Positions 17,537 to 24,993 of a stretch of 64,000 nucleotides of DNA are shown one piece after another. Under the pieces are notes generated by a model, which ran no database searches, was not told the origin of the DNA, and saw only the letters and a list, made by a program, of their open reading frames with translations. Within the stretch, counting starts at the first letter, position 1. Every line of letters begins with the position of its first letter. The stretch is from a plasmid. The stretch lies in NCBI RefSeq assembly GCF_054482595.1, contig NZ_JBTHVH010000001.1; one strand, 5' to 3'. Made by a program: the position numbers and the translations under genes.

Positions 17537-18730
17537 GTGACCTGGGACGATCACAAGAAGAATTTTGCTCGCCTGGCGCGAGATGGTGGTTACACCATCG
17601 CACAGTATGCCGCCGAGTTTAATCTTAACCCTAATACTGCACGTCGTTATCTCCGTGCCTTCAAAGAAGACACCAGGACAGCGGACAGCCGCAAGCCAAA
17701 TAAGCCAGTCAGGAAGCCACTAAAAAGCATGATCATTGATCACTCTAATGATCAACATGCAGGTGATCACATTGCGGCTGAAATAGCGGAAAAACAAAGG
17801 GTTAATGCCGTTGTCAGTGCCGCAGTCGAGAATGCGAAGCGCCAAAATAAGCGCATAAATGATCGTTCTGATGATCATGACGTGATCACCCGCGCCCACC
17901 GGACCTTACGTGATCGCCTGGAACGCGACACCCTGGATGATGATGGTGAACGCTTTGAATTCGAAGCTGGCGATTACCTGATAGATAACGTTGAAGCGCG
18001 GAAGGCCGCTCGCGCTATGTTGCGTCGGTCCGGGGCCGATGTTCTGGAAACCACTCTTCTGGAAAAGTCTCTTTCTCATCTCCTTATGCTGGAGAACGCC
18101 AGGGATACGTGTATTCGTCTGGTGCAGGAAATGCGCGATCAGCAAAAAGACGATGATGAAGGGACTCCGCCTGAATATCGTATCGCGAGCATGCTAAACA
18201 GCTGTTCCGCGCAGATAAGCAGCCTGATCAACACCATTTACAGCATCCGGAATAACTATCGAAAAGAAAGCCGGGAGGCGGAAAAGCACGCTTTATCTAT
18301 GGGGCAAGCTGGCATTGTTAAGCTGGCATACGAACGAAAGCGTGAAAATAACTGGTCAGTGCTGGAAGCAGCTGAATTCATCGAGGCGCATGGCGGAAAA
18401 GTGCCGCCCCTGATGCTGGAGCAAATCAAAGCCGATCTGCGTGCTCCTAAGACCAATACCGATGATGAGGAAAGGCAAACAGCCGTCGGTGGCCCTTCTC
18501 TTGAAGATCTGGACAAAGTTGCGCGAGAACGGGCCGCCAACCGCCGCGCCGATGCCGCATTGTGGATTGAGCAGCGTAGGGAAGAAATCGCCGATATCGT
18601 TGATACAGGCGGTTATGGAGATGTTGATACTGAAGGTGCATCAAACGACCCATGGCTGGAACAAGACCTGGACGAAGACGAGGAGGAAGACGAAGAAGTT
18701 ACCCGCAAGCTATACGGGGATGATGATTAA
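17537..18730 (+). CDS. pacA: PacA, terminase small/pac-recognition subunit
   Basis: 397 aa, GTG start; contains the pac hexamer clusters. Confidence 0.85.
17730..17916 (+). other. pac packaging site: two clusters of TGATCA/G hexamers (Dam sites)
   Basis: Hexamers at 17730, 17737, 17749, 17764 and 17860, 17872, 17883, 17911, inside pacA. Confidence 0.7.
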
Positions 18731-23094: not shown

Positions 23095-23332
23095 AATTAT
23101 GCCTCACTGTATTGACAACACAGAGCCCGAAGCTCTGACCTACTGTTTCACCCATGATCCATGCTGGGGTAATCTAACAACATTGCGCTGTGTGTAAGAT
23201 GAGCAATGCATAGCTGTAATGCCGTTGTATAAGGTTTCCCTGTTTGCTCATTTCCTTCTGAGCCGCTCTACAACGCTGAAGACACATTAAATAGTGAATC
23301 CAAAGTCGTATTACGTAACGGCGGCAAAACTA

Positions 23333-23349
23333 TAATTTATTAGAGCAAT
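23333..23349 (-). promoter_or_regulatory. C1 operator (16/17), Op99-type region upstream of coi
   Basis: Reverse complement ATTGCTCTAATAAATTA. Confidence 0.65.
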
Positions 23350-23415
23350 TGTCAAACAACTATGAAAAACAATCCAGTTTTTAGCTGGTGGAGTGGGATT
23401 TTTCTCTCAAAATTT

Positions 23416-23432
23416 ATTGCTCTAATAATTCT
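23416..23432 (+). promoter_or_regulatory. C1 operator (15/17)
   Basis: ATTGCTCTAATAATTCT. Confidence 0.6.
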
Positions 23433-23476
23433 TGATTTTTATGCGCAGCTGGACGTAAACTCCTCTTCGGATCTAA

Positions 23477-23510
23477 TAACTTCGTATAGCATACATTATA
23501 CGAAGTTATA
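23477..23510 (+). other. loxP: loxP recombination site
   Basis: Exact ATAACTTCGTATAGCATACATTATACGAAGTTAT. Confidence 0.97.
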
Positions 23511-23698
23511 TTAAGGGTTATTGAATATGATCAATTTACCTGTAAATCCATACAGTTCAATACTGTAGCAGGTCAAATAGTGACCACTTGATCATTTGAT
23601 CAAGGTTGCGCTACGTAAAATCTGTGAAAAATTGGCGGTGTTAGTCCTACAGATTTCGCGTAGCGCACTTAGCACCACCAATCAATCAGAGGTGAAAA

Positions 23699-23920
23699 AT
23701 GGGATATTCAACTGCTAAAGTGTCCACTCATCTTGAGCTTGAGAAAAACCGTGGTTACTGGCGGGCAAAAGGGTTTGATCGTGATAGTTGCCAACTGTCA
23801 TTATCGCGCGGTGAAGAGAAAATAGAACGCACGCGCGGTCGCTGGCGTTTCTATGACGAGAACCATAAACAGGTAAAGGCAGAGCCGATCCTGTACACTT
23901 TACTTAAAACCATTATCTGA
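23699..23920 (+). CDS. small ORF (73 aa) between loxP and cre
   Basis: ATG with GAGGTG SD; identity unknown. Confidence 0.35.
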   Translation: MGYSTAKVSTHLELEKNRGYWRAKGFDRDSCQLSLSRGEEKIERTRGRWRFYDENHKQVKAEPILYTLLKTII

Positions 23921-23927
23921 GTGTTAA

Positions 23928-24959
23928 ATGTCCAATTTACTGACCGTACACCAAAATTTGCCTGCATTACCGGTCGATGCAACGAGTGATGAGGTTCGCA
24001 AGAACCTGATGGACATGTTCAGGGATCGCCAGGCGTTTTCTGAGCATACCTGGAAAATGCTTCTGTCCGTTTGCCGGTCGTGGGCGGCATGGTGCAAGTT
24101 GAATAACCGGAAATGGTTTCCCGCAGAACCTGAAGATGTTCGCGATTATCTTCTATATCTTCAGGCGCGCGGTCTGGCAGTAAAAACTATCCAGCAACAT
24201 TTGGGCCAGCTAAACATGCTTCATCGTCGGTCCGGGCTGCCACGACCAAGTGACAGCAATGCTGTTTCACTGGTTATGCGGCGGATCCGAAAAGAAAACG
24301 TTGATGCCGGTGAACGTGCAAAACAGGCTCTAGCGTTCGAACGCACTGATTTCGACCAGGTTCGTTCACTCATGGAAAATAGCGATCGCTGCCAGGATAT
24401 ACGTAATCTGGCATTTCTGGGGATTGCTTATAACACCCTGTTACGTATAGCCGAAATTGCCAGGATCAGGGTTAAAGATATCTCACGTACTGACGGTGGG
24501 AGAATGTTAATCCATATTGGCAGAACGAAAACGCTGGTTAGCACCGCAGGTGTAGAGAAGGCACTTAGCCTGGGGGTAACTAAACTAGTCGAGCGATGGA
24601 TTTCTGTCTCTGGTGTGGCTGATGATCCGAATAACTACTTGTTTTGCCGTGTCAGAAAAAATGGCGTAGCTGCGCCATCTGCCACCAGCCAGCTATCAAC
24701 TCGCGCCCTGGAAGGGATTTTTGAAGCAACTCATCGATTGATTTACGGCGCTAAGGATGACTCTGGTCAGAGATACCTGGCCTGGTCTGGACACAGTGCC
24801 CGTGTCGGAGCCGCGCGAGATATGGCCCGCGCCGGAGTTTCAATACCGGAGATCATGCAAGCTGGTGGCTGGACCAACGTAAATATTGTCATGAACTATA
24901 TCCGTAACCTGGATAGTGAAACAGGGGCAATGGTGCGCCTGCTGGAAGATGGCGATTAG
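23928..24959 (+). CDS. cre: Cre site-specific tyrosine recombinase
   Basis: 343 aa; matches the well-known Cre sequence (MSNLLTVHQNLPALPVDATSDEVRKNLMDMF...MVRLLEDGD). Confidence 0.97.
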   Translation: MSNLLTVHQNLPALPVDATSDEVRKNLMDMFRDRQAFSEHTWKMLLSVCRSWAAWCKLNNRKWFPAEPEDVRDYLLYLQARGLAVKTIQQHLGQLNMLHRRSGLPRPSDSNAVSLVMRRIRKENVDAGERAKQALAFERTDFDQVRSLMENSDRCQDIRNLAFLGIAYNTLLRIAEIARIRVKDISRTDGGRMLIHIGRTKTLVSTAGVEKALSLGVTKLVERWISVSGVADDPNNYLFCRVRKNGVAAPSATSQLSTRALEGIFEATHRLIYGAKDDSGQRYLAWSGHSARVGAARDMARAGVSIPEIMQAGGWTNVNIVMNYIRNLDSETGAMVRLLEDGD

Positions 24960-24976
24960 CCATTAACGCGTAAATG

Positions 24977-24993
24977 ATTGCTCTAATTCTTTG
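24977..24993 (+). promoter_or_regulatory. weak C1 operator-like half site (core ATTGCTCTAAT)
   Basis: 13/17. Confidence 0.3.

Follow-up and report, generated by a model that had tools for sequence, protein, structure and literature searches.

Does the short interval between loxP and the recombinase gene cre of P1-like DNA hold a control element beyond those already described, and could the inverted repeat within it act on cre? We examined this question on a plasmid contig (NZ_JBTHVH010000001.1, RefSeq assembly GCF_054482595.1), of which a stretch of 64,000 nucleotides (nt), hereafter the window, was analysed; the spacer in question runs from 23511 to 23927. An earlier note, made from the letters alone, had recognised loxP, cre, GATC sites and an open reading frame (ORF) here and had guessed that the spacer is regulatory, all of which matches the annotation of phage P1. 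The inverted repeat, which is absent from that annotation, proved to belong to a widely conserved palindrome family, and the ORF, cra, to be a gene under selection. The account that we favour, a P1 control region with a genuine cra and a repeat that would serve as a double-stranded protein-binding site, has in our view somewhat better than an even chance of being right as a whole.

The 521 bases around the spacer are 99.6% identical to phage P1 (AF234172, NC_005856) and collinear with it through loxP, cra and cre, with 2 differences in 468 nt when compared to AF234172. Identity to the cre sequence of 1986 (X03453) is 98.7%, and the loxP-cre spacer is 100% identical to that of a 97-kb Escherichia coli plasmid. 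The cra and Cre proteins are also 100% identical to those of P1. Window coordinates equal P1 coordinates plus 23492 (P1 coordinate 1 is window 23493). The ORFs upstream encode the C1 repressor (283 aa) and Coi (69 aa), and those downstream Cre (343 aa) and then c8. Judged by sequence, the window is a P1-like phage-plasmid, a variant rather than the reference P1, with the canonical loxP-cra-cre control region of such elements at 23476-23927.

Compared with the P1 cre regulatory region in X03453 and AF234172 (reportedly from Sternberg, Sauer, Hoess and Abremski 1986 and from Lobocka et al. 2004, respectively), loxP, Dam sites 1-3, the promoters pR1, pR2 and pR3, ORF1 (cra), the leftward promoter P2coi and the LexA box map base for base. 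All features but the inverted repeat are annotated in AF234172, X03453 and AF503408, and descriptions of the GATC sites, ORF and promoters date from 1986 and 2004. As first noted, the finding would matter little, these elements being long known. In contrast, the inverted repeat is no feature of the P1 records, nor is it annotated in the GenBank record of P7; the source papers of 1986 and 2004 may mention it.

The repeat consists of two 19-nt arms, TGCGCTACGTAAAATCTGT at 23607-23625 and ACAGATTTCGCGTAGCGCA at 23649-23667, which are complementary at 17 of 19 positions, with one T.G and one A.C opposition in mid-arm. The left arm holds the -10 hexamer of pR1. Between the arms lies a 23-nt spacer or loop (23626-23648), which becomes 25 nt (23625-23649) in the 17-nt arm register of the family described below. 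The 18-bp inverted repeat with a 23-bp spacer that had been reported from the letters is real, its arms being slightly longer than was then stated, and imperfect. No other repeat of such quality occurs in the 64 kb, and 30 shuffles averaged 0.13. Comparison of 61 distinct P1-like versions of the lox-cre interval showed a near-invariant left arm and a loop that varies more than any other segment of the whole interval (12 of 23 columns). In phage JK004 the corresponding position holds a repeat whose upper stem differs (GCTACGTGAATT-N31-AATTCACGTAGC), and a Salmonella relative carries a hybrid repeat (GCGCTACGTAAAATCTG-N25-CAGAATTCACGTAGCGC).

The spacer was used as a blastn query against plasmids. 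A segment of 74 bp (23595-23668) was matched at 78-80% identity in about 320 large Klebsiella and Raoultella plasmids, and a second search, started from a plasmid copy, retrieved over 1,800 records, including the virulence plasmid pRJF293. There, the element is located in a long gap without coding sequence, with a DUF1173 gene on one side and a hypothetical gene followed by psiA on the other; we take this psiA-containing region to be the plasmid leading region. Homology between the P1 and plasmid loci is confined to the palindrome. The family consensus is a 59-bp palindromic module, GCGCTACGTGAAATCTG-N25-CAGATTTCACGTAGCGC, from which the P1 copy departs by one base in each arm.

We further scanned one genome per species with the pattern GCTACNNNAAATCTG-N20-28-CAGATTT, which gave 108 loci (here and below, L numbers designate the loci and contigs compared); 83 arm occurrences at 72 distinct loci had a spacer of exactly 25, as in P1. 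When the outer stem alone was anchored and loops of 21-31 nt were allowed, a 25-nt loop was present in 56 of 59 copies. The hosts comprise Serratia, Yersinia, Hafnia, Pantoea, Cedecea, Pseudomonas, Alteromonas, Bowmanella, Shewanella, Moritella and others. No chromosomal copy was detected in E. coli by blastn, a search of limited sensitivity, and a scan of viral contigs returned essentially P1-like contigs only, L082 and a few others being probably chance matches. Conspicuous in a DNA segment so often put to use, the palindrome is not peculiar to P1: it is one copy of a strongly conserved element, found with divergent Cre/lox systems and in Klebsiella plasmids such as pRJF293.

The commonest neighbour of the palindrome is a Cre homolog, present at 11 loci, where the palindrome adjoins 34-bp lox-like sites with entirely different arms. 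These sites begin TAACTTCATATAA at L227 (3175-3206), CTGACCTAATATAA at Pantoea L140 (8042-8075) and TTCACGCATGATAA in Alteromonas. At L140 the order is lox, 96 nt, repeat, 36 nt, cre; in P1 the distance from lox to repeat is 97 nt. Identity to Cre is 42%, 39% and 23% for the neighbouring recombinases (39-42% in Pantoea, 23% in Alteromonas), and the repeat arms are identical at 15-17 of 17 positions. Since the recombinases have diverged and the lox arms have changed but the repeat arms are the same, the repeat is not a recombinase-binding site. In particular, a Cre-binding half-site was rejected, as the repeat arms of P1, Pantoea and Alteromonas do not follow the changes of their lox sites. On these comparisons, the palindrome is a conserved companion of Cre/lox modules.

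Candidate lox-like sites were delimited at L143 (10173-10206) and L132 (2909-2942) as well as at L140 and L227, with arms of 13-14 bp and spacers of 6-8 bp. The Pantoea and Alteromonas pairs of recombinase and lox-like site may be orthogonal and of practical interest; they have possibly been described already (e.g. Panto/pox). We also observed that the partly conserved asymmetric loop (…GCAGGGG…) has opposite orientations relative to the adjacent cre-like gene at L173 (12772-12834) and L227 (3280-3336), the arms being identical. Between these two Pantoea-type loci, the 25-bp loop was evidently turned round in the course of evolution.

Copies without a recombinase were found 22 nt upstream of the Shine-Dalgarno (SD) sequence of a gene in Serratia and Cedecea that we take to be DUF4440-like (a label read from the sequence, with no family search behind it), upstream of a cupin gene, and at a Yersinia locus. 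The palindrome usually lies 20-45 nt upstream of a start codon. In Pseudomonas it occupies the centre of a repeated unit of about 210 bp with 23-bp terminal inverted repeats (GGCCGATTCTGTTGAAAAAGTCG), present at numerous loci, with two or more copies per genome (L161, L162, L174, L175, L189, L193, L203 and others); a literature search with sequence strings of this unit gave no match. At L147 and L226 a second copy, a variant with a symmetric GAATTC stem, lies a few kb off.

How could the repeat work? Three readings were compared, namely a site recognised in the duplex, a folded strand and a mobile element, and the evidence separates them only partly. We place the operator-like reading first, tentatively and at somewhat less than an even chance. 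According to this reading, the module would act as double-stranded DNA, with two sequence-specific half-sites held at a fixed 25 bp from each other and bound, in an operator- or insulator-like manner, by a conserved putative protein. In P1 the left half-site would cover the -10 and start region of pR1, and its occupancy would gate cra-cre transcription, separating cra-cre from P2coi.

The properties of the family members point in this direction. The arms are conserved as sequence, not merely as pairing, across Pseudomonas, Alteromonas and enterics, and the spacer has a fixed length with little sequence conservation. The central pyrimidine-purine step of each arm varies by transitions independently, and is Watson-Crick paired in only 18 of 46 and 10 of 46 distinct copies. 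A single variable stem position changes symmetrically, from A-T to T-A (4 copies, with 2 mismatched intermediates), while the other pairs, apart from the mostly unpaired positions 7 and 8, are invariant and tell nothing about compensatory change. At one Serratia locus a conserved arm stands without an inverted partner, and some 48 nt upstream of it we read a degenerate copy in direct orientation. Sequence-conserved arms, a fixed spacer of free sequence, an unpaired centre and the partnerless Serratia arm together favour double-stranded recognition over a hairpin. The suggestion that the repeat is a regulatory binding site or an attenuator for cre fares differently in its two parts: a binding site is its best reading, whereas an intrinsic terminator or attenuator is unsupported, since no U/T run follows either arm, a terminator scan of 23300-24000 was negative, and a transcript from pR1 would lack the left arm.

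Several points weigh against recognition as a duplex. The binding protein and any effect of the repeat on cre or coi transcription are so far hypothetical. On the cre-sense strand, G.T oppositions exceed A.C in three lineages (judged by eye), as a hairpin of RNA or of a single strand predicts. The Pseudomonas 210-bp unit with its terminal inverted repeats points to a mobile, possibly selfish element. Finally, the position of the repeat relative to the true start site is uncertain, the pR1 hexamers being putative and spaced by 14 or 22 bp.

One alternative, which we consider unlikely, is a passenger: a mobile palindrome of the type of miniature inverted-repeat transposable elements (MITEs) or repetitive extragenic palindromes (REPs), with no dedicated function in P1 beyond a fortuitous -10-like TAAAAT for pR1. 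Pseudomonas, Serratia and Yersinia contain multiple, scattered copies of the family, and the Pseudomonas unit is bounded by its 23-bp terminal inverted repeats, both features of MITE- or REP-like repeats. The contexts are unrelated, from the psiA region of plasmids to the upstream regions of DUF4440-like and cupin genes. Moreover, the family consensus has TGAAAT, without the key A of a -10 hexamer, and the TAAAAT of P1 looks like a lineage-specific change or local adaptation. The module resembles REPs with their bacterial interspersed mosaic elements (BIMEs), enterobacterial repetitive intergenic consensus (ERIC) sequences and Correia-type MITEs in being a short intergenic palindrome, multi-copy in some genomes and often located by gene starts or ends, and, in Pseudomonas, nested in a larger unit with inverted termini. 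It differs from them in its arm sequence, which is not known to resemble their consensuses and has no Rfam or literature match; in its strictly fixed 25-bp spacer; in being single-copy on P1 and plasmids; and in recurring beside Cre/lox. A passenger is also hard to reconcile with the lox-repeat-cre order and distance (97 nt in P1, 96 nt in L140), which are kept while identity to Cre falls to 42% and the lox arms change. Such constancy argues for retention by selection, and the left arm hardly changes among the 61 P1-like versions, in contrast to the flanking spacer. Neither a transposase partner nor a target-site duplication came to light, although no systematic search for them was made.

About equally unlikely, in our estimate, is that the repeat acts as a folded single strand, either as an RNA hairpin in the cra-cre leader or in a leftward transcript, or as a DNA hairpin or cruciform, which would stabilise or process the message as a 5' stem-loop or an RNase III-type site. 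The predicted hairpin is stable (-30.2 kcal/mol as + strand RNA); its folding z-scores are -4.6 and -4.3 as RNA of the + and the - strand, respectively, and -3.2 as DNA. The excess of G.T over A.C noted above, seen in P1-like, Pantoea and Alteromonas copies, and the A-T to T-A exchange at one position would also suit a folded strand, as would the usual location of the element 20-45 nt before a start codon. In Pantoea L140 and some Alteromonas, -10-like boxes appear just upstream of the stem base, so that a full hairpin may be transcribed there, according to our reading of these sequences. In P1, however, the annotated -10 of pR1 (23616-23621) is inside the left arm, and the pR1 transcript would therefore begin in the loop, without that arm. 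Structure alone does not require the conservation of arm sequence from Pseudomonas to Alteromonas and enterics, nor does it agree with two central positions that are mostly unpaired; a 25-nt loop of fixed length and free sequence is unusual for RNA. There is neither a U-run nor an Rfam family, and copies exist without a complementary lower arm or without any inverted partner.

Other candidates were rejected. Conserved coding of the repeat is excluded by the P1 and Klebsiella copies, which read in different frames. A sigma-54 or ECF-type promoter that has its -35 in the loop does not fit the spacing, and the loop sequence carries next to no information content across the family. An integron-like cassette array is contradicted by copies that lie kilobases apart and are not arrayed. 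Resemblances noticed by inspection, to IS1 ends (L009), Tn3-family ends, the P1 ParB box A (ATTTCAC) and parS half-sites, as well as to CRP, Fis, IHF, OxyR and Zur motifs and to a 16S rRNA segment, were none of them convincing. Searches with Rfam 15 covariance models gave no match for the P1, plasmid or chromosomal copies, and for the window only chance-level hits (mir-137, E = 1). A literature search with the promoter names and sequence strings of the element returned nothing relevant.

The location in Klebsiella plasmids led to two further candidates. An oriT was rejected, as no F-type nic motif and no rfsF-like site was present within 3 kb. Frpo elements are hairpins of about 300 nt with -35 and -10 in the stem. 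The Klebsiella and Raoultella copies share with Frpo/ssi promoters a place in the long non-coding gap of the psiA region, but the repeat stem has 17-19 bp, too short for both hexamers of a single-strand promoter, and the repeat is also found in chromosomes and in a double-stranded DNA phage. The 1-kb gap of a Klebsiella plasmid (L004, 1927-2184) holds in addition a separate, larger nested inverted repeat, with arms for instance at 1956-1968/2016-2028 and 1927-1950/2161-2184, which could be a single-strand element of the Frpo/ssi type.

If the operator-like reading is extended to the whole family, the palindrome would be an undescribed portable cis-regulatory module for a conserved gammaproteobacterial factor. 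It would have been carried with Cre/lox dimer-resolution modules since before the divergence of the recombinases of P1, Pantoea and Alteromonas (23-42% identity) and recruited to psiA regions and chromosomal genes; in P1 it would be an operator through which a host signal acts on cre and possibly also on P2coi, which is under SOS control. We regard this extended proposal, taken whole, as distinctly improbable. The direction of action may be set by the orientation of the loop, which differs between L173 and L227. If a factor does bind the palindrome, it would represent a new input to natural Cre control, and perhaps to genes of the psiA region. The membership of the pR1 palindrome in a widespread conserved family, one linked to Cre/lox modules as well as to plasmid psiA regions, is the one thing here that a P1 specialist might not know, and it deserves a modest follow-up.

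The second question concerns the ORF that follows the repeat. cra (ORF1) encodes 73 aa on the + strand from an ATG at 23699 to 23920 and is annotated 'putative cre associated function'. The earlier note had described this frame with a strong SD sequence, GAGGTG, and this was confirmed (23689-23694, four bases before the ATG). The SD is part of a conserved leader, CCAATCAATCAG followed by GAGGTG, at 23678-23694 on the + strand. Of the 31 columns that separate the repeat from the cra start codon, only 3 vary among the 61 variants. A shared CCAATCAATCA...GAGG leader comes after the repeat in P1-like, JK004 and Salmonella-type (L233) elements alike, and in JK004 and L233 it precedes a different first gene.

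Substitutions in cra show the pattern of a coding sequence. Variable columns are distributed 11, 12 and 26 over codon positions 1, 2 and 3, and the pooled pairwise ratio of nonsynonymous to synonymous polymorphism (pN/pS) is 0.25 in the cra frame as against 1.33 and 1.39 in the other two. The frame is intact in 58 of 60 variants; those of L025 and L067 (variants v36 and v47) are frameshifted and may be sequencing errors or genuine pseudogenes. Homologs of 71 aa, 54-68% identical, occur in P1-like elements of Cronobacter (phage JK004), Salmonella, Klebsiella and other Enterobacteriaceae, and end 7 nt before a Cre homolog, as P1 cra does. More distant homologs (40% identical) were found in SSU5-like phage-plasmids, at the end of a small-gene operon by repA and with no recombinase near. 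Since these lack a recombinase neighbour, the name 'Cre-associated' is not universal. Residues W21, W49, K24 and G25 are invariant in homologs from both P1-like and SSU5-like elements. Conservation of the frame as coding in related genomes, on which the earlier note had made its claim depend, is thus observed within P1-like elements (pN/pS 0.25) and beyond (homologs 40-68% identical). cra is a genuine protein-coding gene under frame-specific purifying selection, a clean computational confirmation 40 years after its first sighting beside a heavily used enzyme.

That the ORF could be untranslated, and the region only a transcribed leader holding pR2 and pR3, is scarcely credible: the missing Pfam domain, a low-confidence model without fold match, the lack of a plaque phenotype and the 2 frameshifted variants in 60 would all suit it, but frame-specific selection, homologs with invariant residues at loci that include some without cre, and a conserved, strong SD speak against it.

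What Cra does is less clear from its sequence. The family is tiny, with 10 representatives at E <= 1e-3 among 1.84 billion sequences, and belongs to PHROG 804; no Pfam domain was found. In an AlphaFold model built on 15 sequences, an all-beta fold is followed by a helix at the C-terminus; its confidence is low (predicted local distance difference test, pLDDT, 61.7), and it had no significant match in a fold search. An internal duplication with copies about 28 residues apart (RGYWR.../RGRWR...), visible in the DNA as direct repeat D3 (23750, 23834), suggests two beta-hairpin repeats. Weak matches of Cra to repeats in two large proteins were uninformative. In a screen by CRISPR interference, cra was non-essential for plaque formation (PMC10695390). 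A minimal role can be proposed from the layout: cra, which houses the cre promoters pR2 and pR3 and ends 7 nt before the cre start codon, would bring ribosomes and transcripts to cre.

Several observations on cra loci are added here. JK004-type elements carry an extra 356-aa gene between the repeat with its leader and cra, overlapping the cra start (ATGA), and in Salmonella and one Klebsiella lineage a further 68-aa ORF lies upstream of it (inserted genes at L011, 2733-3803, and at L233-L238, 1434-2504 and 1188-1394). The SSU5-like homologs lie at 3510-3722 in both L012 and L013, with Yersinia pestis and Salmonella plasmids among the carriers. Many RefSeq/NCBI records call the 71-73-aa Cra 'creatininase'; this name looks like an expansion of the gene symbol, and no homology that we saw supports a creatininase.

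Around the repeat and cra, the remaining features follow the P1 map. From a repeat scan and the P1 lox annotation, loxP occupies 23476-23509, two bases further left than had been noted, with 13-bp inverted arms (23476-23488 and 23497-23509) and the 8-bp spacer GCATACAT. To its right lies the leftward sigma-70 promoter P2coi (23533-23560, - strand; -10 at 23533-23538, -35 at 23555-23560; complement of P1 41-68). It overlaps an annotated LexA binding site (23538-23557, core CTGT-N8-ACAG at 23540-23555), also present in JK004 and L233. Three promoters on the + strand are assigned to cre: P3cre or pR1 (23596-23621; -35 TTGATC at 23596-23601, -10 TAAAAT at 23616-23621), P2cre or pR2 within cra (23775-23804; its -35 TTGATC includes the GATC at 23777-23780) and, from the P1 annotation, P1cre or pR3 at the end of cra (23892-23916). 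cre itself (343 aa, 23928-24959, + strand) starts 7 nt past the cra stop codon. The two pR1 hexamers, marked 'putative' in X03453, are 14 bp apart, or 22 bp with the alternative -35, a non-canonical spacing both ways; a consensus scan of the region gave no canonical sigma-70 promoter, pR1 included. In this arrangement P2coi and pR1 stand back to back just right of loxP. P2coi, overlapping the LexA box, fires leftward across lox to imcA, imcB and coi, and pR1, with two Dam sites in its -35 region, fires rightward into cra-cre. A proposed ArgR box (MacDonald et al. 2008) has no bearing on this interval: its place is on the c1 side of lox, and ArgR was shown not to bind it.

The three GATC sites reported between loxP and the repeat exist, although not all within 23545-23600, the first being at 23529-23532 (Dam site 1 of the cre regulatory region in the P1 annotation) and the others at 23590-23593 and 23598-23601 (Dam sites 2 and 3). 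Further GATCs are at 23470, 23777 and 23887. Their density is not above chance: the window holds 8 triplets within 73 nt compared to 9.2 +/- 3.2 under random placement, and 1 GATC-N4-GATC compared to 0.84 expected. The significance of these sites is rather one of conservation and published work. In the segment of the GATC pair (23588-23606), 2 of 19 columns vary among the 61 P1-like versions, both in rare variants only, and JK004 and L233 likewise have a closely spaced GATC pair just upstream of the repeat.

The pair (23590-23601) overlaps both alternative -35 hexamers of pR1 (TTGATC, with GATC at 23590 and 23598), and GATC is also within the -35 of pR2 (23777), the arrangement found in Dam-regulated promoters. 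pR1 is reportedly methylation-sensitive, as the title of the 1986 work by Sternberg et al. and the GenBank annotation imply. The location of GATC inside -35 hexamers of pR1 and pR2 is the feature that this region has in common with the known Dam-sensitive promoters, IS10 pIN and P1 cre pR1. In contrast, no GATC pair accompanies the homologous repeats of Klebsiella plasmids and Alteromonas, and the GATCs are therefore not part of the conserved module.

Elsewhere in the window, the densest GATC clusters are at 17731-17915, in two groups of four (17731, 17738, 17750, 17765 and 17861, 17873, 17884, 17912). We take these to be the methylation-dependent packaging site pac of P1, about 5.6 kb left of loxP. 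Sequences of the type ATTGCTCTAATAA, which presumably correspond to the P1 C1-repressor operator, whose consensus they match, are present at 23326-23349, 23416-23439 and 24977-24993. The first two are inverted copies left of loxP, and the third lies just after cre, upstream of c8.

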